Shown: piece by piece, positions 6,940-33,069 of the stretch
How the letters are laid out: each line of letters opens with the position of its first letter
Position numbering within the stretch: the first letter of the stretch is position 1
Source of the DNA: an uncultured Candidatus Saccharibacteria bacterium
Lineage (GTDB): Bacteria; Patescibacteriota; Minisyncoccia; Phycocordibacterales; DATDWN01
Assembly (NCBI GenBank): GCA_964594005.1
Contig: CAZQKP010000002.1
Span: 1 to 33,274 of the forward strand
Length of the DNA stretch: 33,274 bases
Direction: 5' to 3'
Position numbers and translations under genes: made by a program
Notes under the pieces: generated by a model
Database searches by the model: none
The model's input: only the letters and a program-made list of their open reading frames with translations
What the model was told of the DNA's origin: nothing

Positions 6940-7215
6940 ATCTTTTTCCCTAAATATTTAATATCTATAAAATACTCCCAAATACTTTCCATCTCTCTTA
7001 TCCCAGTAGTTATTTCTGGTTTTATTAACACAATACTTGAAGCCCAAAAAGCAACTAAGGAAATCTACCAGTATAATTTCTATAGCAATATGTTTGGAAT
7101 TATCATTCTTTTCCCACTTATCTATTATTACGGGATTTGGGGTGCAATTTATTCCCGAGTTATTACTAGATTTTTTGGCTTGGCCTTAGCTGGTGGGCTA
7201 GTTAAAAAAATCTAA
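6940..7215 (+). pseudogene. In-frame continuation of the Wzx flippase (the last ~91 codons), cut off by the TGA at 6937
   Basis: The same frame stays open from 6940 to TAA 7213-7215. It encodes hydrophobic flippase-like helices (IFFPKYLISIKYSQILSISLIPVVISGF...GIWGAIYSRVITRFFGLALAGGLVKKI). Confidence 0.6.
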
Positions 7216-10339: not shown

Positions 10340-11065
10340 TTATTTTTTAGCTGCTACCACCATAGCTGAGACTCCGAAAGGAAAATTAAAATACTTGAGA
10401 ATTGGTCTCTCGGTCGAAAAAATCAAATACATTAACTTGTTGACCAGCTTGTTTCCAATTTTATTTTCATCCTGCATCTGTATGCCCAAGGTTTTAACTA
10501 AAAGTCTGACAGAGGCTATAGGCGAAAAAAGAAAGAAATTAAAATAACTCCTTTTTTTAATCACAAAATTGTTACCCTCAACCAATTGCACCAAATTCTT
10601 TAGACGATAACGTCTATAATGCTGACTCAGAACATCCGTGATGCTCCACAAAAAATTAAAGGCAGGTACAAAAATAATTATTTGCCCATTTGGTTTTAAG
10701 ACTCGATAAATCTCTTTCATTGCTTTATCGTCATCTTTTAAGTGCTCTAAAACATCTAGAGCTAAAACTAAATCAAAATTTTCGCTTGGAAAAGGCAGGC
10801 TCTCCGCCGGAGCGACCTGTACGGATTCTATGCCCCTGCTTTTACAAAATGAAACTGCATCGGGGGAAAAATCAACCCCTTCTACTTGCCCATATTGTTT
10901 AAGCTCAGTCATAAGTGCTCCAGGTCCACAACCTACATCCAAAATTGAAATAGGTTTATTTTTGACAAATTTGTTAATTAAATCATGTACAATCCCCCGC
11001 CTGGTTTTGTACCACCAGTGCCCCTGCTCTACATCGTAAATTGTTTGGTAATGAATCTTTTGCAT
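10340..11065 (-). CDS. Class I SAM-dependent methyltransferase
   Basis: Motifs HWWYKTRR, ILDVGCGPGAL, VLALDVLEHL. The likely start is MQKIH at 11065, 2 nt after the asnB stop; the tracked ORF extends to 11116. Confidence 0.85.
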   Translation of the reverse strand: MQKIHYQTIYDVEQGHWWYKTRRGIVHDLINKFVKNKPISILDVGCGPGALMTELKQYGQVEGVDFSPDAVSFCKSRGIESVQVAPAESLPFPSENFDLVLALDVLEHLKDDDKAMKEIYRVLKPNGQIIIFVPAFNFLWSITDVLSQHYRRYRLKNLVQLVEGNNFVIKKRSYFNFFLFSPIASVRLLVKTLGIQMQDENKIGNKLVNKLMYLIFSTERPILKYFNFPFGVSAMVVAAKK

Positions 11066-11067
11066 AA

Positions 11068-13907: not shown

Positions 13908-15659
13908 CTAGTTCACTTTGTAAATAATGAAGGATTCGTCTGTATAAACCTTGGTTAAAAAAGTTAACTTAGCTAAGCCATTTTGGGCCTCCGTATAATA
14001 TGGGTAATTTTTTGAAAGAAGAATATAATCCATCTCATATCTTTTAAATAAAATTTTTTTGTCTTCTTTCTTTAAATCATTGTACCTAGCTACAAGTGGG
14101 CTGATTAAATTATCTGGAATCATTTCAATTTGAGGCCCTCTTTTGTAACCGAGAAGTGATAGGATTTTATCTTTGTTCTGCATAAAAAAATATGAATCTA
14201 CGTATTTATTCCCCCAAATATCTTTTTGGTTTGCTCGAACATAGTCTAAATTAAAATTCGATACAAATATATTTTGTATAAACCACCTGTTTTGAATTTC
14301 CTCATCCGATACAAGATAAAAGATAGAGTATGGATCAAAATAAGGTTTGTTGCGAGTGTAGATTGTAATCAGAGGATTTACATCACTACCGAGGACATTT
14401 ATAACAGAGTTAGGTGGTGTATTCTTGTTTAACCACTCAAAAATTTTTTGTCTTTCTTCTAAAACTAGCAGTCCCGATCGCTCTGGTACTCTGGGGACCC
14501 GGACTGTAAATTCTCTGTACTGCCTTATTGTCAAAACAGCGAAGAATAAAGCAAGTGATACTGGAACTATGAATTTATAAAGTTTTGATGAGCTATTCCT
14601 ATCTAAAAACCACGCCTTTAAAATTATTGCCGAAGACAATAATACAAATAAAATAGTTACGACCAAATAATGGCTTGGGAATTGTAAGGCTTGTCCAGAA
14701 ATAACATTTTGCCAATTTAAAATAAAAACACTTAAGATTAAGCAAAAGGATAAATACAGACTTTTTTTATCAATCCTCGTTCTATATATAAAAAGAATTA
14801 TAAAAACTAAGATACTAAGTAGTATATTCGAATAAGCTCCAGGCCAATGAGAATAAATCATGCCTATTCTATACGACAAATCTAGATACCAAGGGGATGA
14901 TTTAGCCGTGAGGAAAGATGCTGTGTATATAATGGCAAGGGGAATAAATGATGTAAGGTAAAATTTTAAATTGTGAAAAGATTCTTTGGTACCTTTTGCA
15001 AGAGCTAACCCGGCTAAAGTAGTTAAGAAATACAAAACAACCAAAGCTGTCCAATAGTAAGGTGAGACGAAAAGACACAAGCCGGTTATAAAACCAAGCC
15101 ATAAATTGATAGGCTTATTTACTCCATTATTTATATAGTTCTTGAAAATTAGAATTAACCCGGGCAAAAGAAAAAGCATTGTTAACTGGGGGCTTATTGG
15201 TCGACCAAATGTTTGAAAAAACAAGATGAAGAAAAAGGAGGTAAACAAAACTGAATATATTTTTTCTTTTAGAATTGAATGGAAAAGAAAATAAGACAGT
15301 AAAAAAAGTGAAGGCACAATTAAATAGCCAGAAAGTAGCATAGCTAGAGGCACAGAAAGGCTAAATATTTCAGATAAAAGTGCGATTAGCCACTCTGGCA
15401 AAGGTGGCTGAGCAAAAATATCTTTTTCATGTTCTTTTAGATAAGGATTACCGATAAACAAATCCCCGTTTACTACACTTGAAACCCTGGCTAAATAATG
15501 AGTCTCATCTTCAATAAAAGTAGGATAAACCCCTTTAAAATCATGCCCCAGACTCGCAATTGAAATTAATCGCGGCAAAATAATTGCTATAGTAAAAAGT
15601 ACTGCAACTATTACCGCCAGCTTGTGATCAATAATAGATTTTTTAATTCTGCTGAGCAT
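13908..15659 (-). CDS. Large multi-pass membrane protein with a C-terminal soluble domain, putative GT-C-type glycosyltransferase
   Basis: 583 aa with about 12 hydrophobic segments. The acidic motif FIEDETHY follows TM1. It is adjacent to the GtrB-like GT2. No specific family was recognised. Confidence 0.45.
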   Translation of the reverse strand: MLSRIKKSIIDHKLAVIVAVLFTIAIILPRLISIASLGHDFKGVYPTFIEDETHYLARVSSVVNGDLFIGNPYLKEHEKDIFAQPPLPEWLIALLSEIFSLSVPLAMLLSGYLIVPSLFLLSYFLFHSILKEKIYSVLFTSFFFILFFQTFGRPISPQLTMLFLLPGLILIFKNYINNGVNKPINLWLGFITGLCLFVSPYYWTALVVLYFLTTLAGLALAKGTKESFHNLKFYLTSFIPLAIIYTASFLTAKSSPWYLDLSYRIGMIYSHWPGAYSNILLSILVFIILFIYRTRIDKKSLYLSFCLILSVFILNWQNVISGQALQFPSHYLVVTILFVLLSSAIILKAWFLDRNSSSKLYKFIVPVSLALFFAVLTIRQYREFTVRVPRVPERSGLLVLEERQKIFEWLNKNTPPNSVINVLGSDVNPLITIYTRNKPYFDPYSIFYLVSDEEIQNRWFIQNIFVSNFNLDYVRANQKDIWGNKYVDSYFFMQNKDKILSLLGYKRGPQIEMIPDNLISPLVARYNDLKKEDKKILFKRYEMDYILLSKNYPYYTEAQNGLAKLTFLTKVYTDESFIIYKVN

Positions 15660-16789: not shown

Positions 16790-17653
16790 TTAACTCACTC
16801 GCTCTCCTGGACCAATAGATTTTTTATATTTGTATTTTTTCTGTAAGTGCACTTTAAATGTTTCAAAATGATTCTCGGAAGTGAAAGGAGAATAAAATTT
16901 GTCTTTAACTAAATCTGACCTGACAAAAAAAGTATCGTTGCCCATAATAGAACAGCCAACCAACGTGTAACCTTTTTCTTTGCCAAGAATCTCTAAGGCC
17001 TTAACACTGGCGCCAAAATAAGTAGACCTATCCCAGACATGTTCGGGGTTATATTTCATTACCCAAGAAATTGATGGCCCGAAAAAAGGGTTGCATTCAA
17101 TTACTACCACCCTGGGGTTATAATTTTTAATAGCTTGCCAGACCCAATAATCATTGCCATCAATATCAATCGATAACAGATCAAACTCTTTGGGCACCTT
17201 ACTTTCCTTAAATAAATTCTCAATATTTTCAGCAGTAATAAATGTATTTTTAACATTTAGCTCTTTACCAATATAATTTTCAAAATTTTTCTGAATACTT
17301 TTAAAAAAGGAGTTGCTACCCTCTAGCCACTCGCCATGCCAACCAGATAAGAGGAGAGAGGCGGTACAATTTTCCAAACCATCACTTACCCCAAATTCCA
17401 CAAAAAATTTATTGGTTGTGCCAATTCTTTTAAAAATCTCGGCAATAACCCCATCCTCTCCAGATTGAGAAAAAACATTGTATTCGTATCTATTTAATCT
17501 TTTAGGATCGGCGTATTTGGGATTGTTGAGAACATTTTCTTGAAAGTAATCCTCCGATAATACTTCCCTTACAAAAGAAACCTCGCGAGATAACTCTCCT
17601 ATCCCTAATTTTTCTTTAATATGAAAAAATAATTTTTTTATAAATGACTTCAT
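16790..17653 (-). CDS. FkbM-like methyltransferase (tentative)
   Basis: FVEFGVSDGLENC and DLLSIDIDGNDYWVWQAI...VVVIECNP resemble the FkbM/Methyltransf_21 pattern. The assignment rests on motifs only. Confidence 0.45.
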   Translation of the reverse strand: MKSFIKKLFFHIKEKLGIGELSREVSFVREVLSEDYFQENVLNNPKYADPKRLNRYEYNVFSQSGEDGVIAEIFKRIGTTNKFFVEFGVSDGLENCTASLLLSGWHGEWLEGSNSFFKSIQKNFENYIGKELNVKNTFITAENIENLFKESKVPKEFDLLSIDIDGNDYWVWQAIKNYNPRVVVIECNPFFGPSISWVMKYNPEHVWDRSTYFGASVKALEILGKEKGYTLVGCSIMGNDTFFVRSDLVKDKFYSPFTSENHFETFKVHLQKKYKYKKSIGPGERVS

Positions 17654-21887: not shown

Positions 21888-22217
21888 TTAAAATCTGGGC
21901 AGAATCTCAACTACATCACCTACTTGCCAATTTGCAACTGGTTTTAAAAGTTCTACTACTTCAATATGTTTCGGATGTTTTTTAAAATCTTCAAATGACT
22001 TCTGATCTTTGAAAATAGCAATCTCGACCAGGTGAACACCTTTTCTTAAATCCATATTTGGTTGTACAGACCAAAAAAGTATGCCGGCGTTTTTCCCTCC
22101 ACAGTCATCCCCCAGAGTTGCGTATCGAGCTGCAATCTCTTGTTTTATTTCTTCACTCGCTTCGGGCAGAAAAGAAATGAAAATTACATGGTGTAGATAT
22201 GATTCCTTTATTTCCAT
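21888..22217 (-). CDS. Dabb (stress-responsive alpha/beta barrel) domain protein
   Basis: 109 aa. The protein has HHVIFISF near its N-terminus and ...FEDFKKHPKHIEVVELL later, typical of Dabb-family proteins. Confidence 0.7.
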   Translation of the reverse strand: MEIKESYLHHVIFISFLPEASEEIKQEIAARYATLGDDCGGKNAGILFWSVQPNMDLRKGVHLVEIAIFKDQKSFEDFKKHPKHIEVVELLKPVANWQVGDVVEILPRF

Positions 22218-22224
22218 GAGTCAC

Positions 22225-22253
22225 AATATACCTTAAAATTTTCAATTTGACAA
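22225..22253 (-). promoter_or_regulatory. Sigma-70-like promoter TTGTCA-17-TATATT, 7 nt upstream of the Dabb ATG (leaderless geometry)
   Basis: The minus strand reads TTGTCAaattgaaaattttaaggTATATTgtgactcATG. Confidence 0.45.
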
Positions 22254-22274
22254 GTAGGGATAATGTGTTAGCAT
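22247..22274 (+). promoter_or_regulatory. Candidate divergent promoter TTGACA-16-TAGCAT for the HD-domain gene
   Basis: TTGACA at 22247-22252 shares its bases with the minus-strand TTGTCA. TAGCAT is at 22269-22274. The SD GGAGGTG at 22304-22310 precedes ATG 22313. Confidence 0.35.
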
Positions 22275-22312
22275 TGAGACAGAAATCGGCCGCATTGGCC
22301 ATTGGAGGTGCG

Positions 22313-23020
22313 ATGGAGATTGACAGAAGCCGGATCCTCCTTACATTCGGGAGGCTCCGACAAGAAAACTGGGCATTCTATGAGGAGGTCAAGCGCCTCC
22401 ACACACAGAGCCCATCGAAGCGTCAGAGAGGCCATGGCATGGAACATAACGTGCACGTGGCCCTGCACGCTCTCGACATCATGCAGAGCGATTACGCTGG
22501 GCAGGAGCGTTTGGAGAAGCTGGTTTTCCTGGCAGCTATCGCCCACTCCCTCGATCGCCTGTTCGAGAGGGGCGCCGACAACAGCTTCGCGAACCTCGTA
22601 CACAATTGCCTCGAGCTGACCGACCTCAATGAGAGCGACAAGTCTGTCGTACTCGAATCAGTCCTCGATCATGAAAAGAAAAACGACGAGGGACGAATCG
22701 ACACGCGGGTCACAGTGATCCTCAAGGATGCCGACCGCGTTGCCAACATGGGTGCGGCTCTGGCGATCCGGAGCGGGCAATTCAGACCGGATATCCCGCC
22801 GTACGAGATGGCGCACCTGCGGACATCGAACCCTGCGTCGACCTACCGGGATCCCTCGTCGGTTTTCGAGGACTTGCGTGGCTGCTTCGAGTGGATCGAT
22901 TGGATGCGAACCGAGCGTGGTTACGCACTCATCGTCCAGAAAGCTGCGAACCTCCGCAAATACCTCGAGACGGTCGCCGACGAATTCGAGTTCATCGGCA
23001 TGATCCGTGTCGAGATCTGA
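22313..23020 (+). CDS. HD-domain phosphohydrolase (YedJ/YpgQ-like pattern), high-GC foreign gene
   Basis: GHGMEHNVHVA, LAAIAHSLDR and ILKDADRVANMGAALAIRSG occur in the usual order of HD-superfamily motifs, but HS replaces the canonical HD. Third codon positions are almost all G/C in this frame. ATG 22313 lies 2 nt after GGAGGTG. The tracked start at 22247 is the TTG of a -35 box. Confidence 0.6.
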   Translation: MEIDRSRILLTFGRLRQENWAFYEEVKRLHTQSPSKRQRGHGMEHNVHVALHALDIMQSDYAGQERLEKLVFLAAIAHSLDRLFERGADNSFANLVHNCLELTDLNESDKSVVLESVLDHEKKNDEGRIDTRVTVILKDADRVANMGAALAIRSGQFRPDIPPYEMAHLRTSNPASTYRDPSSVFEDLRGCFEWIDWMRTERGYALIVQKAANLRKYLETVADEFEFIGMIRVEI

Positions 23021-23027
23021 CACAGCT

Positions 23028-23068
23028 GGCCTGCACCCTACGGGGTGCAGGCCGGTTTCTATTTTCTT
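23028..23068 (+). terminator. Intrinsic terminator of the HD gene
   Basis: Perfect 11-bp stem GGCCTGCACCC / GGGTGCAGGCC with a TACG loop, followed by GGTTTCTATTTTCTT. Confidence 0.85.
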
Positions 23069-23106
23069 GCAGATTTAGCGTACTTTGATAAATTAGGATT
23101 ATTAAA

Positions 23107-23784
23107 ATGAAAAGGCTCTCCATAATTATCCCCGCCAAAAATGAGGCGAAAACAATTGGTGAAATAATAAGAAAAGTAAAAGAAATTAATTTACCTCTTT
23201 GGGAAAAAGAGATAATTGTAATTGATAATAATTCCGCTGATGGAACAGAAAACATCTCGCGGTCATTGGGGGTTACAACTCTGAAAGAAATGGGACCTGG
23301 TAAAGGTTCAGCAGTAAAAAAGGGGCTCGCGAACGCAACAGGCGACTTTATTCTTATTCAAGATGCGGACCTGGAATATAATCCGGAGGACATCCCCCTA
23401 CTTTTAGATAAAGCTAAAGATAAAACTGCTGTGTTTGGTTCTCGAAATTTAAAATCGCACCGTAAGGGCACATGGTTAGCTCGAGCCGGAGTTTGGTTTT
23501 TAACTAAAGAATTCAATTTGCTGTTCAGAACAAAACTAACTGATTTGTGGACATGCTACAAACTCTTCCCCAAAGAAGCGGCAAATTTATTTGCAGCTGG
23601 CGGCTTTGAATCGGAATTAACTTTTTCAGCCAACCTCATAAAAAATAAATTTATGATTGAAGAAGTATCAATTTCTTACAATAACCCCAGGACCGAAGCG
23701 GAAGGCAAAAAAATTCATTATATGGACGGAATACGAGGGATTTTTGTTTTACTGAAAGATAGATTTATAAACCCAAAAATTTAA
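23107..23784 (+). CDS. GT2 glycosyltransferase (DPM1-like, soluble type)
   Basis: Motifs IIIPAKNEAKTI, IDNNSADGT, GKGSAVKKG and IQDADLEYNP. Low-GC host composition. Confidence 0.88.
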   Translation: MKRLSIIIPAKNEAKTIGEIIRKVKEINLPLWEKEIIVIDNNSADGTENISRSLGVTTLKEMGPGKGSAVKKGLANATGDFILIQDADLEYNPEDIPLLLDKAKDKTAVFGSRNLKSHRKGTWLARAGVWFLTKEFNLLFRTKLTDLWTCYKLFPKEAANLFAAGGFESELTFSANLIKNKFMIEEVSISYNNPRTEAEGKKIHYMDGIRGIFVLLKDRFINPKI

Positions 23785-24880
23785 TTATTGGATTTATATT
23801 TATAAAATTTAGAATAAAAGCATCCATTAAAAAATTCGTGATTATATAAAGAAATAACACAGGTAATATATAAAGCATTCTTTTCTCAATTCTTTCAATA
23901 AATAAACAAGTCACCAACACGGCGGCTGGCATAGAAATAAATAAGACTCTCGTAACAACAGGCCAAAGTAAAATTGCAAAAGAAGAAGTAATTACTAGCC
24001 AAATAAAAAATACCCTTTTTTCTCTAAAGACCTCCCTGTATCTTTTAAGCAGCAAGTAAAATCCAGGCAAAAATAAAAACCAAGCAAAATTATAAATTGA
24101 GCCAAATGATTTTATGAACTCAACTACCCTATCTTGATATGCATAGACTTTTTGATAAGTAAACCAATTCCAGTAAGTATAGTGATCGTAATTAATAAAA
24201 GTATAAACATTCATTAGAGCAAAAGGTAAAAATGAAATTAAACCAGAAACAAAAACCTGCTTAATTACGTCTCTCCATTTGCGCCAATGTTTAAATAAAA
24301 TTACACCAAATAAAACCACATAAGCTACAAATGCATACTCTTTATACAGTCCACCTAATCCAATTGCTAAAGATGCAAAATACAACCATTTATTTTCTGC
24401 CTCTTCTAAATAACGATAGGTAAAATAAATAGATGCTAGATAGAATGCCCAGCCCCCCATATCCATTAGATAACCTAGGCCGAAGACAATAATCGCATAG
24501 TTGGTCATCAAAAATAAGGAGCCTAAAAAAGCTATGTTTTCTTCTTTAAAAATTTTTTTTAATAAAGAATGGAAAAACAAACCAGCAGATACATATAAAA
24601 TAACATCAACAATTAGCCACGAGATCGCAAGATCGTGAAAAAATATATCAAAAAGCATAATCGCCTTTAAACCAAGAGGTGTTGTCAAAATCATCTCCGG
24701 CATAAAACCCGCAGGCCTAATTCCGGTTCTTATAACATTTATACTGTCCACATAAAGTAAACTATCCCCCGCAATTTTTGGCTTTAAAGCTAATGGCGAG
24801 AAGATGGCCAGAAAAATCAAAATAAAAAATAACAAGGCGAAATAGTGATCTTGTTTAAATTTTAAAATTATTTTTTTCAT
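23765..24880 (-). CDS. Multi-pass membrane protein, possible small GT-C-type transferase
   Basis: 371 aa with about 10 hydrophobic segments. The acidic segment AGDSLLYVDS follows TM1. Its start is ATGA-coupled to the upstream methyltransferase gene. Confidence 0.4.
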   Translation of the reverse strand: MKKIILKFKQDHYFALLFFILIFLAIFSPLALKPKIAGDSLLYVDSINVIRTGIRPAGFMPEMILTTPLGLKAIMLFDIFFHDLAISWLIVDVILYVSAGLFFHSLLKKIFKEENIAFLGSLFLMTNYAIIVFGLGYLMDMGGWAFYLASIYFTYRYLEEAENKWLYFASLAIGLGGLYKEYAFVAYVVLFGVILFKHWRKWRDVIKQVFVSGLISFLPFALMNVYTFINYDHYTYWNWFTYQKVYAYQDRVVEFIKSFGSIYNFAWFLFLPGFYLLLKRYREVFREKRVFFIWLVITSSFAILLWPVVTRVLFISMPAAVLVTCLFIERIEKRMLYILPVLFLYIITNFLMDAFILNFININPIIKFLGL

Positions 24881-25725
24881 TTCTTTCTACCTAAGATATA
24901 AAGGTGAGCCGCTACCGCTTCAGCCCCTGGCATTTTCATAAAAAAATAATCTGGATATTTTAAAGGACCCAGAACTAACATAAAAACATGAGCTAAAAAT
25001 GGCGCGGCTTTTCTTGAACCAAAAGAAAAAATTACACCTAGCCAATAAGCCAAAAACATTAAGAAAGCACTCCATGGACCTGATCTAACTCCAGATTCAA
25101 CTATTTCTAATTCCGGAAACATGTACTTTAGACCAGAAATTGTCCAACGATTAAAATCATCCGGCGAAGCGTGATAAGGATGAATAAATGGCGCACTCAC
25201 ATAAATATAACCACCTGGCTTAACTATACGAACCATTTCCTTGGCAACTTTGTGCGCATCCGGCACATGCTCAAAAACTGATTCTGAAACTGCGCCATCT
25301 ACTGAATTGTCGGGGAATGGTAGCTCCTCTGCATTTGCCACAATATCTACTTCCGGGAAGGGATAGACATCTATATTTGTAAATTCTTTGCCTAATCTTT
25401 CTGGACCAGAACCAATATCTAAGATCGTGGCATCAGGCTTTACATTTTTTAAAATCATTCTCGGGCCATTTACTAACATCATCACTGGGCAAAAGACATG
25501 CCAGACTCCGTAATAAACTTTTGGCCATCTTTTTAAGAAAGACTTTAGCCAATTAACTCCTGACTCGTGTTGGTTAGAATTCTTAATATAAATTTTTTGT
25601 TCAATTAGAATTGGCCTTCCATCCACATCAATATCAAAATCACCATGAGTTGCACAGGTATATTTATCTGTTTTTTTTAGTTTACCTTTGCAAATAGGAC
25701 AAACTAGAGTTAGATTCGAGCTCAT
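24877..25725 (-). CDS. SAM-dependent methyltransferase with an N-terminal Trm112-like zinc ribbon and a C-terminal hydrophobic anchor
   Basis: Motifs CPICKGKL...CATHG, ILDIGSGPERLG and AVSESVFEHV. The C-terminal hydrophobic region is WSAFLMFLAYWLGVIFSF...FLAHVFMLVLGPL. The likely start is ATG 25725, overlapping the upstream TGA (ATGA); the tracked ORF extends to 25749. Confidence 0.85.
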   Translation of the reverse strand: MSSNLTLVCPICKGKLKKTDKYTCATHGDFDIDVDGRPILIEQKIYIKNSNQHESGVNWLKSFLKRWPKVYYGVWHVFCPVMMLVNGPRMILKNVKPDATILDIGSGPERLGKEFTNIDVYPFPEVDIVANAEELPFPDNSVDGAVSESVFEHVPDAHKVAKEMVRIVKPGGYIYVSAPFIHPYHASPDDFNRWTISGLKYMFPELEIVESGVRSGPWSAFLMFLAYWLGVIFSFGSRKAAPFLAHVFMLVLGPLKYPDYFFMKMPGAEAVAAHLYILGRKK

Positions 25726-27407
25726 TTTATATTTGGAGCATTGTGACAATCATAAATCTTTGCGGACATAGCTTTATCAGTTTCATTATATATAATCTGG
25801 CAACTATTAAAGTATCTGGCATAAATTGTATTTTGGTCAAAACGTGGTACATCTAGAACAAAATAGTCTTCTTTATATTTATTTAGATTTGCGATCTTAT
25901 CAGCAAAGGCAATGGGGTCGTTGTCAAATTTTGGATCAATATAAAGTCTTTTACGATACTTGCCAATTTGTTGAATATCAAAGCCACCATTGTCATTGTA
26001 AGTAGTGACCATATCTACTTTCGGATTATTTTTCATAAATTCCACTGCGTGATGTAAAAGCTTTGGCGCCGAACCATTTATTAAACCAAATAAATATTCT
26101 TCCATAAAAACTCCATTATAAATTATGCCTAATGGAATAAGAAACGAGACTGCGAGTAAACGGTGTTTGGAACTAACTAAACCCCAACCAGTCGCAAAAA
26201 GCGAAACAAGCCAGACTGATGCCATAAAGAGAAAAGAGACATAAAAACCTAAGGGACCGGAGCCTCCTGAAAAAGGATACAGAAAATTCCATTTTAGACT
26301 CAAGATGCGACTAATCCACTCTGTTTTGGGATTAAGCGGTGGCACATAGTGATTTATAAACTCTAGAGCAAAAAATAAAATAGATAAAAGTGAGGCAAAT
26401 ATAAAGAATTTCTTGTTTAATTTTTTAAACTGAGCTAAAGAAACTGCATTCATGACTGACAAAGGTAGGACTAGTAATTGTAAATAACGATCCAATGCTC
26501 CCGTTGAGAAATCAAATAAAACAACATAAAAAATAAAGGCAAAGATTAAAAAGAAAATAAAAACTCTTAATTTAGGTAAATCCTCTTTTTTTATAAATAA
26601 AGAGATAAAAACCAAGAAAGGCGAAGAATAAAGAAATGCTTTAACACACTGGATAAATGTCTGAAGCCATCCTTTATTTAAAGTGGCAAAGTGCTCCCAA
26701 TACGAAAGTGAAGCAGATAAATGAAAGAAGGGAAATATCTTTTGAGACAGAAATAGAATTAAAATAAACACGATGATCGCCGAAGCGAGCCAGCTAAGAT
26801 ATTTTAAAACGTCTTTTTTGGACAAATAATTTCTTCTGGACCACAAAAAATCAGCAAGGATTGCGCCAACAGCTAAAACAAAGCTAATTTTCACTAATAA
26901 CCCGAATAAAGAAGAAATAATTAGTAGAATCCCCCATTTGTACTTTTGTTGACCTTCTGTATTTAGTAATTTCGTGTAACCTATGAGAGACAAGAGAAAA
27001 AAGAAGGGTAAAATTTCACCATCGGTATCAACCATGAGTGATGCAAGAATAGAAAAATAAGCCAAAGACCAAATTAGAGATGCAAGTATCCCTTCTTTTT
27101 TACCAAAATTTTCCCGAACAAAATAATAAAGTAAAAATAAATTTAATGTACCAAAAAATAAAGGCACAAAACGAAAATTCACATTAAAACCAACAATATA
27201 ACCTGATGTTTTATAAATTAATTCACTTAAGGGCGGGTGTGGAATCGAAACATCACTTACATAACCCGGACTAGTTATAAGTGGCCACTTGTATTCGTCT
27301 TGATGTAGGGGCAGATGAACACCTGGAAGACGAACCAAAAGAAAGACTAAAATAATTAGAGGTAAGAATATTTTTTCGTTAGTAAAAATATCTCTTATTG
27401 CTTTCAT
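25722..27407 (-). CDS. GT-C-fold membrane glycosyltransferase (ArnT/PMT_2-like)
   Basis: 561 aa with about 12 hydrophobic segments. LHQDEYKW follows TM1 (the GT-C acidic loop position). A C-terminal soluble domain is present. Confidence 0.55.
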   Translation of the reverse strand: MKAIRDIFTNEKIFLPLIILVFLLVRLPGVHLPLHQDEYKWPLITSPGYVSDVSIPHPPLSELIYKTSGYIVGFNVNFRFVPLFFGTLNLFLLYYFVRENFGKKEGILASLIWSLAYFSILASLMVDTDGEILPFFFLLSLIGYTKLLNTEGQQKYKWGILLIISSLFGLLVKISFVLAVGAILADFLWSRRNYLSKKDVLKYLSWLASAIIVFILILFLSQKIFPFFHLSASLSYWEHFATLNKGWLQTFIQCVKAFLYSSPFLVFISLFIKKEDLPKLRVFIFFLIFAFIFYVVLFDFSTGALDRYLQLLVLPLSVMNAVSLAQFKKLNKKFFIFASLLSILFFALEFINHYVPPLNPKTEWISRILSLKWNFLYPFSGGSGPLGFYVSFLFMASVWLVSLFATGWGLVSSKHRLLAVSFLIPLGIIYNGVFMEEYLFGLINGSAPKLLHHAVEFMKNNPKVDMVTTYNDNGGFDIQQIGKYRKRLYIDPKFDNDPIAFADKIANLNKYKEDYFVLDVPRFDQNTIYARYFNSCQIIYNETDKAMSAKIYDCHNAPNIK

Positions 27408-27416
27408 GTTTTTAAA

Positions 27417-27422
27417 AATATA
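27417..27422 (-). promoter_or_regulatory. -10-like hexamer TATATT, 9 nt upstream of the GT-C ATG
   Basis: The minus strand reads tttgtTATATTtttaaaaacATG, with no SD. Confidence 0.3.
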
Positions 27423-27439
27423 ACAAATTAATCGTCTTT

Positions 27440-27477
27440 TTGATATCTATTGATAAATCCTAAAATTATGTTATCTT
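27440..27477 (+). promoter_or_regulatory. Host-composition promoter candidates upstream of the DUF218 gene
   Basis: Two options are TTGATA (27440-45)-15-TAAAAT (27461-66), or TTGATA (27450-55)-16-TATCTT (27472-77). The SD GAGGTG at 27487-27492 lies 4 nt before ATG 27497. Confidence 0.3.
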
Positions 27478-27496
27478 AGCGCGAGAGAGGTGCCGC

Positions 27497-28102
27497 ATGG
27501 CATTTATTGACTGGCTTGCAAGAAAGTGGGCAGTCTCAGATAACCCGCCCACTCACGCCGACCTGATCTTCGCGGTTGCCCACGGGAGTGTCAGAGAACG
27601 ACCGTCAAAAGGTCTGGAGGCTGTTGTAAGCAAGACCGAAGAGCTCACGAAGAGATACGCAGGGATGATTTCCCAGCCCTTCGTCGCCTTCGGAGAATTC
27701 ACGTACTCGGGGCCAACATCAAGGGATGTGGAAGCGGAATTCAAGCTCGATCACTTTCCCAAGGGCCGCTTCATCGGGCTTGTGGCAAGCACAACCGAAG
27801 AAGCAATGAAAGCCTACGACCTCGCGGCCAGGCTTCCGTGTGACCCGCGCAAGATCGTGATTGTGACCGATGAGTCACATTCGCGACGCTGCCGCCTGAT
27901 CTGGCAGGAATTCTTTCCGCTAGCAGAGATCTTCATCGTAACCGTCCCCCTCCGAGACGTTGTAGAGAGAAATAGCCCGATGTGGGCATACCGCGCCGCC
28001 TGGCGCATTCTCCTGCTCAACATCGCGCTCACACCGTTGTTCGCCGCGATGAAGCGCGAGCAAATGGAGAAGCTCTGCAAATTCCACCAACCCACATTCT
28101 AA
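27497..28102 (+). CDS. DUF218 (YdcF/SanA/ElyC-like) domain protein, high-GC foreign gene
   Basis: ADLIFAVAHGS, ASTTEEAMKAYDL and IVIVTDESHSRRCRLIW match the order and character of DUF218 motifs. A C-terminal hydrophobic helix is AAWRILLLNIALTPLFAAM. Third codon positions are G/C-rich. Confidence 0.6.
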   Translation: MAFIDWLARKWAVSDNPPTHADLIFAVAHGSVRERPSKGLEAVVSKTEELTKRYAGMISQPFVAFGEFTYSGPTSRDVEAEFKLDHFPKGRFIGLVASTTEEAMKAYDLAARLPCDPRKIVIVTDESHSRRCRLIWQEFFPLAEIFIVTVPLRDVVERNSPMWAYRAAWRILLLNIALTPLFAAMKREQMEKLCKFHQPTF

Positions 28103-28111
28103 CCACTTGTA

Positions 28112-28145
28112 CCCGCTGCCAGAAATGGCAGCGGGTTTTGTTATT
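28112..28145 (+). terminator. Intrinsic terminator of the DUF218 gene
   Basis: Perfect 10-bp stem CCCGCTGCCA / TGGCAGCGGG with a GAAA loop, followed by TTTTGTTATTT. The T-tract runs into the stop codon (28141-28143) of the convergent methyltransferase gene. Confidence 0.85.
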
Positions 28146-28779
28146 TCTTCGCCACAAAAAGCATTTGTCCTGCAAAAGGTTTAACCGGTGATTTTAAATA
28201 AGTTCGAACAATAAGAGGGTGAAGTGGCATTAATTTGGGACGGGAAGCCAAAGAAAAAGGCAAAAAACGTGGTTTCTCTAATTCAATATTAAAGCCAAAA
28301 CTTATTAGAAACGCTTTTAAGGAAACATCTGAGAAAACTTTTTTATGGGTTGGATCATCAAAATAAGTTTTGGAAGATAATCTAAAATTTGGCTGCATTA
28401 ATATAAGTCTGCCTTTCTTTTTTAAAACTCTATTTACTTCTTTCATGGTTAAAGAAAGCTCGTAGTCGGTTAAATGCTCAAAAAGATTGCTAGCAAAAAC
28501 TACGTCCACCGAATCTGTTGGGATTTTACTCATATCGGTTACGGACGACTCGATAGTCTTAACATCCTTATCTGCGTATTTTTTAAAATCAGGTGAGTGA
28601 TCTAGGGCAATTTTATTTTGCGCATCTACATTATTAATAAAATCACAATAACCTGCACCTAAATCTACAACTGTACCTTTTGCTGGAATGAATTTCTTTA
28701 AATATGAAACAATTTCTTTCCAAACTACGGAGCGATCGTTGTTCCAAACATATCTAGATTTGTAATAAGAGTCTTTCAT
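28141..28779 (-). CDS. Class I SAM-dependent methyltransferase
   Basis: Motifs VVDLGAGYCDF and VFASNLFEHL...GRLILMQPN. Confidence 0.85.
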   Translation of the reverse strand: MKDSYYKSRYVWNNDRSVVWKEIVSYLKKFIPAKGTVVDLGAGYCDFINNVDAQNKIALDHSPDFKKYADKDVKTIESSVTDMSKIPTDSVDVVFASNLFEHLTDYELSLTMKEVNRVLKKKGRLILMQPNFRLSSKTYFDDPTHKKVFSDVSLKAFLISFGFNIELEKPRFLPFSLASRPKLMPLHPLIVRTYLKSPVKPFAGQMLFVAKK

Positions 28780-29495
28780 TAAATGTTTCTGAAGCGGTAG
28801 TAAATAATCATTGGTATCATTTTAGCGCCTAAAACTGCGGCTTTCCAGATACTGCCTGTATACATCGACTGCCCGATTCGCGGTTTAAACATAATTGGAA
28901 TTTCAATCGGCATAAATCCTTTCTTGATTGTCCAAATCATAAATTCGGGAGACCATTTGCCATCGCCACTAGACAATGGAAAAAGTGGAATAATTTTTTG
29001 AAGCGCTTCGCGGGAAATAAGTTTGTAAGTGCAACCTACATCAGTGAATGTAGAACCGTTGTGAATAATTTCTAAAAGTTTTGCCACGGCCCAGTTGCCA
29101 AAACGCACCGGAAAGGGCATGAAAGCTCCAGACCAAATACTGGCTCTAGAAGTCCTGGTACCAAAAACCACCGGAAAATTTTCGCTGTAGAGTAAAAATT
29201 TGTGCAAATCATTGGGATCAAATGTACCATCTGCCTCAACCATAACAATTAAGTCTCCCCTTGCTTCTTTTAGCCCCCGCATGAGCGCATGGCCGTAGCC
29301 TTGATGCTCACTTTCGAGTACCCTTCTCGCTTTTGTTTTTTCAATCTCCTCCTTTGTATTACCCAATGCATTATTATCAACCGCGATAACTTCGTCTACA
29401 AAACCAGTCGCAAAAAAACCGTTGATAACCGACCTTACAGAATCTGCTTCATTATATGTACCAAAAACTACGCTTACTTTTTTATTCTTATACAT
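28779..29495 (-). CDS. GT2 glycosyltransferase (DPM1-like)
   Basis: Motifs VVFGTYNEADSV, VDNNALGNT, GYGHALMRG and MVEADGTFDP. Its TAA shares one base with the downstream ATG. Confidence 0.88.
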   Translation of the reverse strand: MYKNKKVSVVFGTYNEADSVRSVINGFFATGFVDEVIAVDNNALGNTKEEIEKTKARRVLESEHQGYGHALMRGLKEARGDLIVMVEADGTFDPNDLHKFLLYSENFPVVFGTRTSRASIWSGAFMPFPVRFGNWAVAKLLEIIHNGSTFTDVGCTYKLISREALQKIIPLFPLSSGDGKWSPEFMIWTIKKGFMPIEIPIMFKPRIGQSMYTGSIWKAAVLGAKMIPMIIYYRFRNI

Positions 29496-30519
29496 TAGAG
29501 TTCATTATAGTATAGAGTTTGTCTATTAAATTCGAGAGGCTCTGCGACTGTGAAAATTTTAAAAGTTCTGGTTCAATCTTTATCTTAACGTGTGGTTCCA
29601 AAAGTTTTTTTATAGAATCCGCGATATTTTCTTTATTATTTAAGGTGAGACATTCCATCGGTAACAAATTAGAAAGTGAAGAATTGGAAACCAGAGGCAT
29701 TGCCCCACAGCTAGCTGCTTCAACAATTGTTTTATCAAACGAACCGGAATCGGTTAGGTTGAGACAAATATCGAAACTGCTATAGATTTCAGGCAACTTG
29801 TCTTGGATGACCGCAGGTAAAAAAGCTACTGTATTAGTTAAATTATTTTCCGTAACAAAATCTTTTATTTTCTCAAAATAAGACATATTTTTCTCACCAG
29901 GAGATCCAATCACAGCAAATGATACCTGAAAACCATTTTGAACCAACAATTCTACCGCCTCCACCCCCATATCAACGTGTTTAATTGGAGAAATTCTGCC
30001 AATCATACATATTGAATATTTTTTGCGAACCGCACCTGGTATTGGTTTAAATAGATCAGTATTAATCCCCGCTGGCATAACAGTAGTTTTCTTATATCTG
30101 GCAGTAAAAGAATCCTTGGAAGTACAGAAAACACCTGTTGAAAGAAAAACTGCAACCCTGGTTAAAAATGATCCCTTGGGGTGGTTTCGCCAAAGATAAA
30201 CTGGAATATTTTTTATTTTCCAATATAGTCCAGCAAGTAAAACATACTCCTCATTCATGTGCACAAAGACACGATCGTATGAGCCAGAAATTAAAAAAAG
30301 ATACTTAAATAATTTAAGAATATACCCAGCTTTAGAAGTGCTGCTCTCCTTGCCCAAAGAATACACTGTGACATTTTTTGGCAAATCAAAGTTGCCGGCT
30401 TTAAGACAAATCACGAGAACCGAATCAAATTTTTTAGCAAACTGGGTAAGCCAATCATGCATGAACCCCAGTACGGGGTCATTTTTATCAACTGCCTGAG
30501 TTAAAATAAGTAATCTCAT
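29488..30519 (-). CDS. GT-B fold (GT4-like) glycosyltransferase
   Basis: 343 aa. N-terminus MRLLILTQAVDKNDPVLGF and a C-terminal nucleotide-sugar-domain-like segment DKTIVEAASCGAMPLVSN. Confidence 0.8.
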   Translation of the reverse strand: MRLLILTQAVDKNDPVLGFMHDWLTQFAKKFDSVLVICLKAGNFDLPKNVTVYSLGKESSTSKAGYILKLFKYLFLISGSYDRVFVHMNEEYVLLAGLYWKIKNIPVYLWRNHPKGSFLTRVAVFLSTGVFCTSKDSFTARYKKTTVMPAGINTDLFKPIPGAVRKKYSICMIGRISPIKHVDMGVEAVELLVQNGFQVSFAVIGSPGEKNMSYFEKIKDFVTENNLTNTVAFLPAVIQDKLPEIYSSFDICLNLTDSGSFDKTIVEAASCGAMPLVSNSSLSNLLPMECLTLNNKENIADSIKKLLEPHVKIKIEPELLKFSQSQSLSNLIDKLYTIMNSNV

Positions 30520-30923
30520 AAAACTACGCTGCCTTGATTAAAAATATATTTTTTAGAAATCGGGAAGGTGCACAATGCGGTGCAAATACCAGCAATAATT
30601 ACACCGATGATTGGTAATATCCCAAAAAAATGAACACAGACATACAAAACTAACGTGTTAACTCCTAACCCAAAAATCGAACTGAGAAGATATAGAATAC
30701 CTTGGATATGAATTCTGTCGGTGGATAAATCTTTAAAGGTCCAAAATTTCTGCAGAACCAAACTGACTCCAAATGCCAAGACAAAAGCAATGATATTGGA
30801 AATAAGATAGTGAATGTGAAAAATATAGAAAAGTAAAGAAAAAACAGACAAATTAACAAAAGCGCTTGTCCCACCAGAAATTATATACCGTACAATTAAA
30901 TGTTTAGTAAAATAATTTATCAT
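30516..30923 (-). CDS. GtrA-family small membrane protein (polyprenyl-phosphate-sugar flippase-like)
   Basis: 135 aa with four hydrophobic helices and the N-terminal signature RYIISGGTSAFVNLSVFSLLFY. Confidence 0.85.
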   Translation of the reverse strand: MINYFTKHLIVRYIISGGTSAFVNLSVFSLLFYIFHIHYLISNIIAFVLAFGVSLVLQKFWTFKDLSTDRIHIQGILYLLSSIFGLGVNTLVLYVCVHFFGILPIIGVIIAGICTALCTFPISKKYIFNQGSVVL

Positions 30924-32056
30924 TTGGTTAATTTCTCGAGTAACCCTACATACCTGCTTACATATTCCTCCTTGGAAATTGAGACCGCCTTAATACTATC
31001 CTGCATCTTTTGACTAAACAACTTCCCTTTTTCGGGATTCGTTATTAATTCTTCGATGCTTTTAGCTAGACAATCAACATCCCCGACTGGACAAACAAAA
31101 GAATTTTCCCCGCTTTTAAATAAACCTGTTTTAGCCAAACCTACCTTCGTTGTTACTACAGGAGTCCCTGCTACACTTGCTTCAACTAACGTCATGCCAT
31201 AGCCCTCAAATTCCGAAGTCAAAAGGAAGACATCAGCAAATTTATAAAATTGTAATAATTTTGCCCTATCTACCCAGCCCATTAATTTTATCGACACTCC
31301 ATCTTTTTTCGCCATTGCCTCTATATTTTCTCTTTCCTCACCCTCACCACATATAATCAGAACAACATCAGAAAGCTTTTCTTGCACTCTTTTCATTACG
31401 TGAAGTGCGATATCCAATCTTTTTTCTTTCGAAAGCCTGGAAGCCATGAAAACGTATCTCTGAGGAAAATCCGCTCCTAATTGTCTGCAGTCGATTTCTG
31501 TGTGATCTTTAACTGCTTCTGCATCGACAAAAATTGGTAGAATCGTTATTTCAGCCTTAAGGTTTGCGAATTTTTCTTTGACTGAATCAAAAATTACAGA
31601 ACTGACTACCCGTATCTGGTCTGCATTTCGAATTACATATCCGGATGAAAGAACTCTTAACCTATTTAAAAAAGAATTTTTAAAGTAAGGACTTAGGAAA
31701 TCAGTGTGAATCTGAACTTGCAGTGGCATTCCAGAAAAACACTTGAGACCCACACCGACCTTACCGCACTCAAATGGATCCTGTACTGTTATAACTCCCC
31801 CAGGATTTAAACTTCTTTCTCGTATGATCTTTTTTCCCAAAAGTATTGCATCTCGAATATATAAAAATTTAGAGGGTGAGTTTGTCGGATAAATATATAG
31901 ATTATTTTTGTGAAATTCCTTTAATCCAAGTTTTTTTACAGAAAAAACAATGATGTGAAGCTCTTCCATTTTAGAAGCATACTCCAAGGATCGTGCCATA
32001 ACGGCACTATTCTCTTCAAATAATTTTCTGTCTGTACTAATGGACAAGACTTTCAT
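30920..32056 (-). CDS. GT4 (GT-B fold) glycosyltransferase
   Basis: 378 aa with motif SEFEGYGMTLVEASVAGTPVVTTKVG. Confidence 0.88.
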   Translation of the reverse strand: MKVLSISTDRKLFEENSAVMARSLEYASKMEELHIIVFSVKKLGLKEFHKNNLYIYPTNSPSKFLYIRDAILLGKKIIRERSLNPGGVITVQDPFECGKVGVGLKCFSGMPLQVQIHTDFLSPYFKNSFLNRLRVLSSGYVIRNADQIRVVSSVIFDSVKEKFANLKAEITILPIFVDAEAVKDHTEIDCRQLGADFPQRYVFMASRLSKEKRLDIALHVMKRVQEKLSDVVLIICGEGEERENIEAMAKKDGVSIKLMGWVDRAKLLQFYKFADVFLLTSEFEGYGMTLVEASVAGTPVVTTKVGLAKTGLFKSGENSFVCPVGDVDCLAKSIEELITNPEKGKLFSQKMQDSIKAVSISKEEYVSRYVGLLEKLTK

Positions 32057-33069
32057 TTTATTTTGTTAAATAAATCAATATATTCTTGCGCAATATCACT
32101 CCAGGTGTGAGTAAAAGAAAATTCTTTTATTTTTTCTATCTGTTTTAGATAATTATCAGAATCAAGAAGCCATAAGACTTTTTTCTTAATATCTTCCTCC
32201 TTTTTTGGGTTTATAGTTATAGCAATATCACTTATCCTATCCATAAAACCGTTTTCTTCTGTTATTATAAAAGGCTTATTGAGACTTATGGCATCAAGAA
32301 TTAAATGATGACTTATATCCCACAGTAATCCCAAAATGACAGCGTAAGATTTTGCCATTTTTTCTAAAAATTCCTTATGAGGAGAGTTGGATATGTCGAG
32401 AGCTACATTTTTTGATCTTATCTCATCCTCTAAAAATACTTTTTGAAGAAAATCTATGTTTTTCCATTTCAAAGGCCTGACACCTGCAATGAAAGTCTTT
32501 GGGCCTGGTCCTGTATTATCAAAAGATGAATTAATTTTTTCGTAATGATTTTCAATAATTATGATCTTACTATTATCTAGCATGTAGGGTTTTAGAAAAA
32601 TATCTTTCTGCCATTTTGTGCTGAAAACTAGAACGTCAACTTTTTTTAAAGTCCACTTGGTAATCCGAAAGATTATTCTTTCCTTTAAAGAAAGGCTTTG
32701 TATTCTTGTGTCGTAAAAGTTCCGGAGGAGAACCAGATCATTTGTTCTCTCGACATATCCCTCCCACAAAAAATCACCACCTGTCCTAATTACTATTTTC
32801 TTTCCAAATATCCGAGATGCAAGGGTTGCTGGAAAACCCACACTAAAAGTGTCTAACGCAAAGACAACGTCTGATTGAATCAACGCTGGGATTATTTTTA
32901 TAAAAAAGAATAAGTGTCTTATACCAGTCGGCAAATAGTTTTCAATACCATAAGTCTTCACTCTGACTTCGTGCCCCATCTTGGACCACAAGTCATTCAT
33001 GTTCTTTGCGTACTGAGCTGGACCAGAAGTTTTTGGTGGATATATTCCTGTAGCAATAACTATCTTCAT
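32053..33069 (-). CDS. GT-B fold (GT4-like) glycosyltransferase
   Basis: 338 aa. N-terminus MKIVIATGIYPPKTSGPAQYA and a C-terminal segment LILDAISLNKPFIITEENG. Confidence 0.75.
   Translation of the reverse strand: MKIVIATGIYPPKTSGPAQYAKNMNDLWSKMGHEVRVKTYGIENYLPTGIRHLFFFIKIIPALIQSDVVFALDTFSVGFPATLASRIFGKKIVIRTGGDFLWEGYVERTNDLVLLRNFYDTRIQSLSLKERIIFRITKWTLKKVDVLVFSTKWQKDIFLKPYMLDNSKIIIIENHYEKINSSFDNTGPGPKTFIAGVRPLKWKNIDFLQKVFLEDEIRSKNVALDISNSPHKEFLEKMAKSYAVILGLLWDISHHLILDAISLNKPFIITEENGFMDRISDIAITINPKKEEDIKKKVLWLLDSDNYLKQIEKIKEFSFTHTWSDIAQEYIDLFNKIK

Follow-up and report, generated by a model that had tools for sequence, protein, structure and literature searches.

A GC-rich DUF218-type gene in a Patescibacteria surface-glycan locus: a probable resident rather than a recent insertion

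A GC-rich unit and its orthologue in a sister genome

We have analyzed a stretch of 33,274 nucleotides (nt) of DNA from an uncultured Candidatus Saccharibacteria bacterium (GenBank assembly GCA_964594005.1, contig CAZQKP010000002.1, positions 1 to 33,274 of the forward strand), here called the window; coordinates refer to it unless stated otherwise. It contains two GC-rich islands. The subject here is the second of these, island 2 (27476-28145), which carries a gene for a DUF218-type protein. Its GC content is 55.8%, compared with 35.1% for the window minus both islands, and it lies at z = 7.5 relative to background windows of 670 bp (standard deviation 0.028, maximum 0.421). The original prediction had drawn attention to this contrast, counting 35/60 G+C at 27841-27900 against 16/60 at 28381-28440, and both counts are exact. 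It interpreted the island as a foreign gene copy that had landed inside a polyprenyl-phosphate glycosylation locus.

The list of open reading frames (ORFs) gives one long plus-strand ORF in the island, as had been described. It runs from 27497 to 28102, has a GC content of 0.56 and a GC content at third codon positions (GC3) of 0.67, and encodes a predicted divergent DUF218/YdcF-fold protein of 201 amino acids (aa). A Shine-Dalgarno sequence GAGGTG, also described previously, can be read on the plus strand at 27487-27492, 4 nt 5' of the ATG. A consensus scan places a predicted sigma-70-like plus-strand promoter (TTGATA and TATCTT separated by 16 nt, with an upstream TG) at 27450-27477, inside an AT-rich spacer of 89 nt that is shared with a divergent PMT_2 glycosyltransferase gene. 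The GC-rich stretch therefore starts at about the expected start of transcription.

At the other end lies a plus-strand intrinsic terminator (28111-28150), comprising a stem-loop at 28111-28136 followed by a T-tract at 28137-28150. The hairpin is ACCCGCTGCCA-GAAA-TGGCAGCGGGT, with a free energy of -23.3 kcal/mol (z = -5.3 relative to shuffled sequences). The perfect GC stem and the GAAA loop are as originally predicted, although the stem has 11 bp rather than 10. With TTTTGTTATTT directly 3' of the stem, island 2 has both the GC stem-loop and the U-tract of a rho-independent terminator. Read on the opposite strand, the T-tract encodes the Lys-Lys-stop end of the convergent gene, that of a methyltransferase of 212 aa. 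It covers the stop codon of that gene (28141-28143) and its last Lys codons, so the overlap that had been noted is real. A single sequence thus forms both a coding end (...AKK-stop) and a terminator tail, and this is kept in a sister genome (window 28137-28150, sister contig L001 10632-10645). The sequence was checked in both directions and has no U-tract after the stem on the minus strand, so the terminator should act only on the island gene. The island is flush against its neighbors, as claimed, with 89 nt to the divergent PMT_2 gene and a gap of 38 nt to the convergent methyltransferase gene. The GC-rich stretch is thus predicted to be one transcript, with its own promoter-like site, Shine-Dalgarno sequence, ORF and one-way terminator. 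The GC boundary coincides with this predicted transcript, and there is no GC shoulder in the neighboring genes at any locus. Rfam has no family in the window, leaving a structured RNA unsupported; taken with the clear coding signal, this rules it out as an explanation.

A word-indexed search of 5.8 billion proteins with the island-2 protein returned a single relative, P0002, that is 64% identical. It is encoded on a 40.9-kb contig of a metagenome-assembled genome (MAG), GCA_964576615.1 (L001/L003), and again in an independent Logan assembly (L002); L001, from the NCBI MAG, and L002 are identical over 9,957 bp. The window and the L001 contig are collinear from 23106 to 30520, through island 2, with 69% nucleotide identity. 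At the amino-acid level the island-2 gene is 64.6% identical in L001, and nine neighbors are 41-89% identical, seven of them 64-89%. Synonymous sites are saturated in all compared genes (proportion of synonymous differences, pS, 0.72-0.80). The island-2 ORF is under purifying selection in its plus-strand frame, with pS = 0.78 and a proportion of nonsynonymous differences (pN) of 0.24. The AT-rich spacer aligns with that of L001, which has TTGTCA-16-CATAAT with a TG; AGAGGTG is kept; and a hairpin is found at the matching place, its stem diverged in sequence but still a hairpin. Promoter spacer, Shine-Dalgarno sequence and terminator can all be aligned. Given this, together with the collinearity, the neighbor-like divergence and the saturated synonymous sites, the whole island-2 unit is orthologous in the window and L001. 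A GC-rich palindrome followed by a T-run was read by eye downstream of nearly every family member examined.

The orthologue in L001 has a GC content of 0.55 and GC3 of 0.64, in a setting where the neighbors have GC3 of 0.27-0.38. Because the sister copy is equally GC-rich, the composition anomaly is old and persistent and does not signal a recent arrival. The original prediction had named homologues at the same position with native composition as one of the observations that would speak against a foreign origin. The position is indeed the same, but the sister copy does not have native composition. The claim that a foreign copy had landed here is not supported by the comparison, since a sister orthologue occupies the same slot with neighbor-like divergence and with homologous promoter and terminator.

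We examined the persistence of the GC excess at four-fold sites, taken at residues conserved between the window and L001; there are 68 such sites in the island-2 gene. Excess identity at four-fold sites is 0.12 for the flanks and 0.06 for the island-2 gene. GC content at these sites (GC4, window/L001) is 0.33/0.35 in the flanks and 0.69/0.54 in the island-2 gene. The residual strong/weak (G+C versus A+T) class memory of the flanks, with its bootstrap interval, was the input to a two-state model of neutral decay. To reach the observed values the model would have to start from an ancestral GC4 of 1.44, or of 1.06 at the upper bound, and neither is possible. The four-fold saturation is replicated in two further pairs of loci. 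In L010 and L023 the family gene has GC4 = 0.40/0.51 where the flanks have 0.15-0.31, and in L012 and L021 the values are 0.51/0.51 and 0.13-0.25. Since the four-fold sites are saturated and the ancestral GC required by the model is impossible, the GC excess is either maintained or renewed (held in place or re-imported), and is not the fading footprint of a transfer.

The excess extends across the family. We compared gene GC with flank GC for 18 family genes that have DNA context. The mean excess is +0.115, reaching at least +0.05 in 16 of the 18 and at least +0.10 in 12 (Wilcoxon p = 4e-5), and it is found in every major clade of the family tree. Family members also occur in contigs of 50-56% GC (L089, L090), where the GC of the gene is like that of the host. 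The island-2 protein has a Gly, Ala, Arg and Pro (GARP) content of 0.29 and a Phe, Tyr, Met, Ile, Asn and Lys (FYMINK) content of 0.24; for host proteins these are about 0.17-0.25 and 0.31-0.42 respectively.

The position of the gene is also shared. A set of 24 sister loci was collected via the conserved family 2 glycosyltransferase (GT2) neighbor, from MAGs labeled Parcubacteria, Paceibacterota, Zambryskibacteria or 'Saccharibacteria' (Patescibacteria). In 11 of the 24 a family gene lies in the same slot, following the GT2 gene and the 212-aa methyltransferase gene (MT_212) and on the opposite strand. Over all loci compared, more distant ones included, the carriers of a gene in this slot are L003, L006, L010, L012, L013, L014, L015, L017, L021, L023, L024, L085, L087 and the P0003 contig. 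The gene is directly head-to-head with a PMT_2 gene in L001/L003, L006, L010, L012, L014, L015, L021, L024, L085, L087 and the P0003 contig; in L013 and L023, PMT_2 is reached 3-4 kb beyond it. The usual arrangement is a family gene head-to-head with PMT_2 and downstream of the GT2/GtrA genes. The distant representatives P0003, P0004 and P0016 have a similar neighborhood. In most of the remaining sister loci the slot is empty, and in L016 and L019 no more than 6-14 nt separate the methyltransferase gene from PMT_2. Across the sister loci L003-L026 the gene is thus polymorphic for presence at a single slot, around locus coordinates 10700-12200. By inspection of the 24 loci, presence of the island-2 gene does not track that of MT_212 or of any PMT_2 subtype.

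A divergent DUF218-type protein

The protein had been assigned to the DUF218 fold on the basis of the motifs ADLIFAVAHGS, STTEEA and VTDESHSRRCRLIW, all of which are found in the translation. A search with the Pfam DUF218 (PF02698) hidden Markov model (HMM) gave a mixed answer. The island-2 protein scores 21.4 bits (E = 2.5e-4, residues 98-155), where the gathering cutoff is 27.6; among 71 aligned relatives 39 match the model (E ≤ 0.01, best E = 1.4e-8), and the sister orthologue P0002 has a precomputed PF02698 match. NCBIfam, PADLOC, PHROGs and PDB sequence searches with the island-2 protein gave nothing, and querying the PDB with the family profile was likewise uninformative. When 1.84 billion representatives were searched exhaustively with a profile, 149 relatives matched at E ≤ 1e-3, of which 57 reached E ≤ 1e-10; almost all are 180-220 aa long. 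A scan of metagenomes with a 10-sequence family alignment yielded two short fragments only, and a scan of viral contigs yielded none.

An AlphaFold (AF2) model calculated from the 71-sequence alignment has a predicted local distance difference test score (pLDDT) of 96.3 and a predicted TM-score (pTM) of 0.92. We compared it with the PDB using Foldseek. The best match is Escherichia coli YdcF (3CA8), the only one at E ≤ 0.001 (probability 1.00, E = 7e-4). The next matches are generic nucleotide-binding alpha/beta enzymes with E ≥ 0.017. To our knowledge YdcF is the only DUF218 protein of solved structure. With HMM matches across the family and YdcF as top structural match, the DUF218-type assignment is borne out, but as a divergent member. 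The protein is thus a divergent member of the DUF218/YdcF-fold superfamily, best filed as a new Patescibacteria-associated DUF218 variant.

Within the 71-sequence alignment E102 is invariant, and E79, H128, S129 and R130 are at least 90% conserved. Among the ten closest members T99, R131 and H128 are invariant. The E. coli SanA variants T125A, H149A and E182A are reported to fail to complement (PMC12176290). When the family profile is compared with the single SanA sequence, H128 aligns with SanA H149 and T99 with SanA T125. Comparisons of this hhalign type with SanA and YdcF are too weak to serve alone as proof of homology.

The island-2 protein has no N-terminal hydrophobic anchor, the maximum of a 19-residue Kyte-Doolittle average being 0.25, compared with 2.93 in SanA. 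The sole hydrophobic stretch is the C-terminal helix at residues 167-185, which is borderline at 1.61. The family has a conserved HQPT motif at its C-terminus. From its sequence the protein appears to fall outside the SanA/ElyC subtype, which has a membrane anchor. Because there is no N-terminal transmembrane anchor it is probably cytoplasmic.

The glycan cluster and other GC-rich solo genes

The window is one large surface-glycan cluster, encoded almost wholly on the minus strand save for secA at its left end. The island-2 gene is thus embedded, in the opposite orientation, in a long minus-strand array of glycosylation genes. The cluster includes a Wzy_C/TPR protein (a Wzy_C-like ligase), a Polysacc_synt flippase, several class I methyltransferases, GT2, GT1 and GT4 enzymes, an asparagine-synthase-like enzyme, a GDP-mannose dehydratase, a DegT aminotransferase, two PMT_2 (GT-C) transferases, a GtrA-family protein and a Dabb (stress-responsive A/B barrel) protein. 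The divergent neighbor of island 2 is a PMT_2 glycosyltransferase of GT-C fold (25722-27407, minus strand, 561 aa, Pfam PF13231), and a second PMT_2 transferase is found at 23765-24880 (Pfam PF13231). Between these two lies a gene for a 290-aa methyltransferase (24877-25749) that starts with a zinc-ribbon-like CxxC...C.H segment, giving weak Zn_ribbon_RlmA and Trm112p matches; this arrangement is kept in L001, L014 and L015.

On the other side, the convergent MT_212 (28141-28779, minus strand) is a class I S-adenosylmethionine (SAM) methyltransferase with Pfam Methyltransf_11/25/23 matches, which is 77% identical to its orthologue in L001 and has native composition (GC3 = 0.27). It is followed by a GT2 glycosyltransferase (28779-29495, minus strand, 238 aa, Pfam PF00535), a candidate polyprenyl-phosphate sugar synthase for which we infer a GtrB/DPM1-like role. 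This is the most conserved gene of the block, with 89% identity to L001. A small membrane protein of the GtrA family (30516-30923, minus strand, 135 aa, Pfam PF04138, E = 8e-23) is a candidate flippase. The locus therefore has the three-component make-up of a GT2 enzyme, a GtrA-family protein and a GT-C transferase, with enzymatic roles taken from the family names. No tRNA is found in the window. Five ORFs of 155-583 aa in or beside the cluster (7212-8768, 13908-15659, 16790-17653, 32053-33069 and 19-486) have no Pfam match at E ≤ 1e-5, and two of them (518 and 583 aa) have sizes possible for uncharacterized membrane glycosyltransferases or polymerases.

Island 1 is a sibling unit of like build (22313-23057, plus strand, within the region 22247-23060). 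It has an ATG at 22313 preceded by a GGAGGTG Shine-Dalgarno sequence, an ORF of 235 aa (GC 0.58, GC3 0.74) that is unrelated to that of island 2, and a terminator with a 15-bp stem at 23024-23057 (-32.4 kcal/mol). The ORF has no match in Pfam, NCBIfam, PADLOC or PHROG. Its motifs H..H, HS.DR and DADR look like those of an HD-phosphohydrolase. Islands 1 and 2 share a codon signature, with a C-fraction at NNY codons of 0.74-0.78, compared with 0.20-0.36 in host genes. Homologues of the island-1 ORF with 31-32% identity lie beside a Dabb gene in L016 (13501-14187) and L087 (2995-3714), with GC excesses of +0.09 and +0.17 respectively.

At the island-1 position in L001 (5133-5537, equivalent to L002 3308-3712) there is a different GC-rich solo gene, an FdtA-like ORF of 134 aa with a GC content of 0.51 against 0.37 and its own hairpin terminator. 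The DNA at this site is annotated in two ways, as a 109-aa minus-strand ORF by NCBI and as a plus-strand FdtA gene in Logan. We considered whether L001 and L002 carry different GC-rich cassettes here, as recent swapping would give, but the sequences are 100% identical and only the gene calling differs.

A second DUF218-like family, of about 200-236 aa, is found in L019 (17763-18443), L025 (9581-10189), L089 (2404-3114) and the P0003 contig (2684-3271). It was assigned from motifs, with a recorded PF02698 match only for the gene of the P0003 contig. These genes are GC-rich relative to their hosts by +0.18, +0.13 and +0.06 in L019, L025 and L089 respectively, and are terminated by a hairpin in L019 and L025. 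In L089 the gene directly adjoins one of the island-2 family. The Dabb gene of the window (21888-22217) has native composition (GC3 = 0.27); 6 nt separate it from the next gene, and the sequence downstream contains no terminator hairpin. The Dabb genes of L016 (13080-13406) and L087 (3846-4151) have GC3 of 0.54-0.58, and each is followed by a GC hairpin terminator of its own. Among these few Dabb genes, GC-richness goes with a solo, terminator-capped status. L008, a Patescibacteria contig of 35% GC, has at its extreme end an ORF (8-598) of 70% GC and GC3 = 0.86 with an Ala/Pro/Gly-rich product, which could be a chimeric contig end or a true foreign gene.

Origin, function and relation to known systems

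We think it reasonably probable that island 2 is a resident monocistronic accessory gene of the Patescibacteria surface-glycan locus, and not a recent insertion. With neutral decay excluded, something would hold the transcribed unit in its GC-rich state, and our preferred cause is selection on the transcript or on its codons. The orientation of the gene as the cause of its high GC is ruled out by GT2_225, a plus-strand gene of native composition.

The main rival is recurrent re-import (source-sink). The family would then be native to GC-richer Patescibacteria, repeatedly lost from AT-rich lineages and regained by recombination at one slot, so that most copies in AT-rich hosts would be young enough to look GC-rich, and the window and L001 would each have imported a copy from related donors. 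Its patchy presence and absence at one conserved site, the reassortment of alleles between adjacent genes, and the members with host-matching GC in L089 and L090 would all fit, and the fully ameliorated copy in L087 shows that decay can finish. Both islands of the window have one codon signature, as if from one type of donor. Yet the window and L001 are mutual nearest relatives for the island gene and for every flanking gene. The next relative, from 5.8 billion and 1.84 billion sequences, is only 46% identical, and so no candidate donor is among them. The window and L001 have homologous AT-rich promoter spacers and terminators, and the GC boundary is that of the transcription unit with no shoulder, where recombination tracts ending in the flanks predict otherwise. 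The sequences from GC-rich hosts, few as they are, form one clade and are not interspersed. We therefore regard re-import as unlikely, though deserving of serious attention. GC-biased gene conversion (gBGC) at a recombination hotspot could likewise raise and hold GC, and would do so without functional selection. The locus is demonstrably recombinogenic, and GC3 and GC at the first two codon positions (GC12) are both raised, as biased fixation would give. However, the neighbors recombine too and have native GC, the edges are sharp and coincide with the transcript without a taper, and in bacteria the differences in GC3 ascribed to gBGC are far below the +0.35 found here. This explanation seems to us improbable.

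The original reading, of a foreign cassette recently acquired from a GC-rich donor and not yet ameliorated, draws on the strong contrast in composition with its sharp edges, on a GARP-rich amino-acid composition unlike that of host proteins, and on a self-contained promoter, Shine-Dalgarno sequence and terminator. It is very hard to reconcile with an orthologue at the same site in the sister genome, flank-equal divergence and saturated synonymous sites, with the exclusion of neutral decay, or with a slot that is conserved family-wide; nor can the L001/L003 contig come from the same population as the window, which 69% nucleotide identity rules out. There is no mobility gene (integrase or transposase) among the neighboring ORFs, which are all glycan-synthesis genes or unassigned, and no tRNA is at hand. 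The borders of island 2 have only short, low-identity repeats at chance level and no target-site duplication, no dedicated search with an attC model having been made. Island 2 has no viral-contig relatives and matches no PADLOC defense or PHROG phage family, so a defense or phage origin is unsupported, and we give the recent cassette very little credence. Even less credible is an artefact, be it an assembly chimera, a contaminating fragment, or a non-coding or wrong-strand feature. The window's own island-2 protein is not on record elsewhere, which is what an artefact would give. Against this, more than 12 MAGs and contigs of different project and sample labels show this architecture with GC-rich family genes, L001 and L002 agree exactly, and the ORF has pN much below pS in the plus-strand frame, a confident fold, homologues, and no Rfam family.

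Several points weigh against the reading as a resident gene with maintained GC and an accessory role in glycosylation. The decay model treats the island gene as having diverged for as long as its flanks and under one mutation regime with them. The upper end of its confidence interval, 1.06, is barely impossible, and the island estimate comes from 68 four-fold sites. The homologue in L087 is fully AT-adapted (GC3 = 0.22), so high GC is not required for the protein, which weakens the argument for universal selection. About half of the sister loci lack a copy, and the gene is therefore dispensable. The locus is a recombination mosaic, in which the distance matrices of GT2 and PMT disagree (rho = 0.34); between L010 and L012 the GT2 genes are 93% identical and the island-2 genes 33%. 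Island alleles thus pass from one lineage to another, and only between the window and L001 is vertical descent secure. With regard to the protein, its own score is below the Pfam gathering cutoff, the 3CA8 match is moderate (TM-score TMq 0.49, 12% identity over 176 aligned columns), SanA E182 has no secure counterpart in the comparison with the family alignment, and when SanA or YdcF is compared with the profile as a single sequence the match is very weak, at an hhalign probability of ≤ 2% (1.9% for SanA). We know of no DUF218 protein with a known biochemical activity, and the proposed function comes from analogy and gene neighborhood.

By that analogy, the island-2 protein is likely to be an accessory cytoplasmic enzyme that tunes polyprenyl-phosphate glycosylation, accessory because the gene is optional in the clade. 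The coherence with such a locus that was originally proposed holds good, in that family genes lie beside PMT_2/GT-C genes in many Patescibacteria genomes. The protein would work at the cytoplasmic face, like YdcF and unlike the periplasmic SanA and ElyC, as a small-molecule enzyme acting on a precursor of a GtrB/GtrA/GT-C-type pathway. Its substrate would be a polyprenyl-phosphate-linked sugar, or its nucleotide or SAM-related substrate, and it would tune the flux of carrier lipid or donor to the adjacent GT-C enzyme. Enzyme-like roles in balancing carrier-lipid-dependent pathways have been proposed for SanA and ElyC (PMC12176290, PMC3879167). Because the flanking genes abut in some relatives that lack the gene, we might also speculate that it sits antisense within an operon.

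Other small solo genes in these loci are GC-rich and hairpin-terminated: the island-1 homologues, Dabb in L016 and L087, FdtA in L001 and the second DUF218-like family. We therefore offer, tentatively, the broader proposal that AT-rich Patescibacteria carry a class of small monocistronic, terminator-capped genes whose GC-richness is actively maintained past the turnover of silent sites. The class may comprise the island-2 DUF218-like family, the island-1 family, Dabb, FdtA and the second DUF218-like family, with GC3 of 0.43-0.74 in hosts of 0.2-0.38. If this is correct, the nucleotide composition of the transcribed unit would itself be selected, or there would be an unusually strong local fixation bias. 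Such selection might, for example, stabilize the mRNA against AU-directed RNases, act on the rate of translation, or insulate an antisense-embedded gene. A compositional 'island' would then be a stable phenotype rather than the footprint of a transfer. No account of persistently GC-rich genes in the candidate phyla radiation (CPR)/Patescibacteria turned up in our literature searches.

Detection of horizontal gene transfer (HGT) from composition would call the island-2 gene recent, and the comparative data point instead to an old resident. It would follow that a gene can keep a 'foreign' composition indefinitely, which matters for the inference of HGT in streamlined, AT-rich, uncultivated lineages. 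The assignment as a DUF218-type protein will not surprise a specialist; it is the persistent GC excess that is surprising. A compact, probably cytoplasmic DUF218 subfamily that has the conserved Thr and His and is tied in position to GT-C, GtrA and GT2 genes also provides a comparative and biochemical handle on the role of the fold.

Among known proteins, YdcF resembles the island-2 protein in being of soluble type with no N-terminal anchor, and the 'S-T-x-x-E' and 'V-x-D-x-x-x-x-R-R' segments of the two align. It differs in its length of 266 aa, compared with 201 aa here, and in its genomic context. YdcF has no His aligned to SanA H149, where the island-2 protein has H128, and the island-2 family has its own C-terminal helical extension ending in HQPT. 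SanA and ElyC share the Pfam family at the family level, and T99 and H128 align with T125 and H149 of SanA. The two E. coli proteins are linked to the balance of peptidoglycan and ECA, to carrier-lipid use and to polyprenyl-phosphate-dependent synthesis of envelope glycans (PMC12176290, PMC3879167). Unlike the island-2 protein, which has no anchor, is found in Patescibacteria and is encoded beside a GT-C gene, they are membrane-anchored and periplasmic.

Three-component extracytoplasmic glycosylation systems combine a GtrB-like GT2 enzyme, a GtrA flippase and a GT-C transferase, using polyprenyl-phosphate sugars (PMC11127046), and the flanks of island 2 supply all three as GT2, GtrA and PMT_2. 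A DUF218-type fourth partner does not appear there, the main text of PMC11127046 containing no 'DUF'. The locus studied here differs in its optional DUF218-type gene, present in 11 of the 24 sister loci.

Noncontiguous operons and antisense-embedded genes are known from Staphylococcus aureus. The likeness lies in an opposite-strand gene inside a co-directional array, in a terminator without a U-tract in the direction of the array, and in flanking genes that are 6-14 nt apart where the island gene is absent (L016, L019). A difference is that the downstream PMT_2 gene may have its own promoter. With classical genomic islands, island 2 shares an atypical base composition and codon usage and sharp borders. 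Horizontally acquired genes ameliorate (Lawrence and Ochman 1997, as cited in PMC12455944). Island 2 is unlike such islands in being a single gene with no mobility machinery, and in being orthologous, and equally atypical, in the sister genome after its synonymous sites have been saturated.

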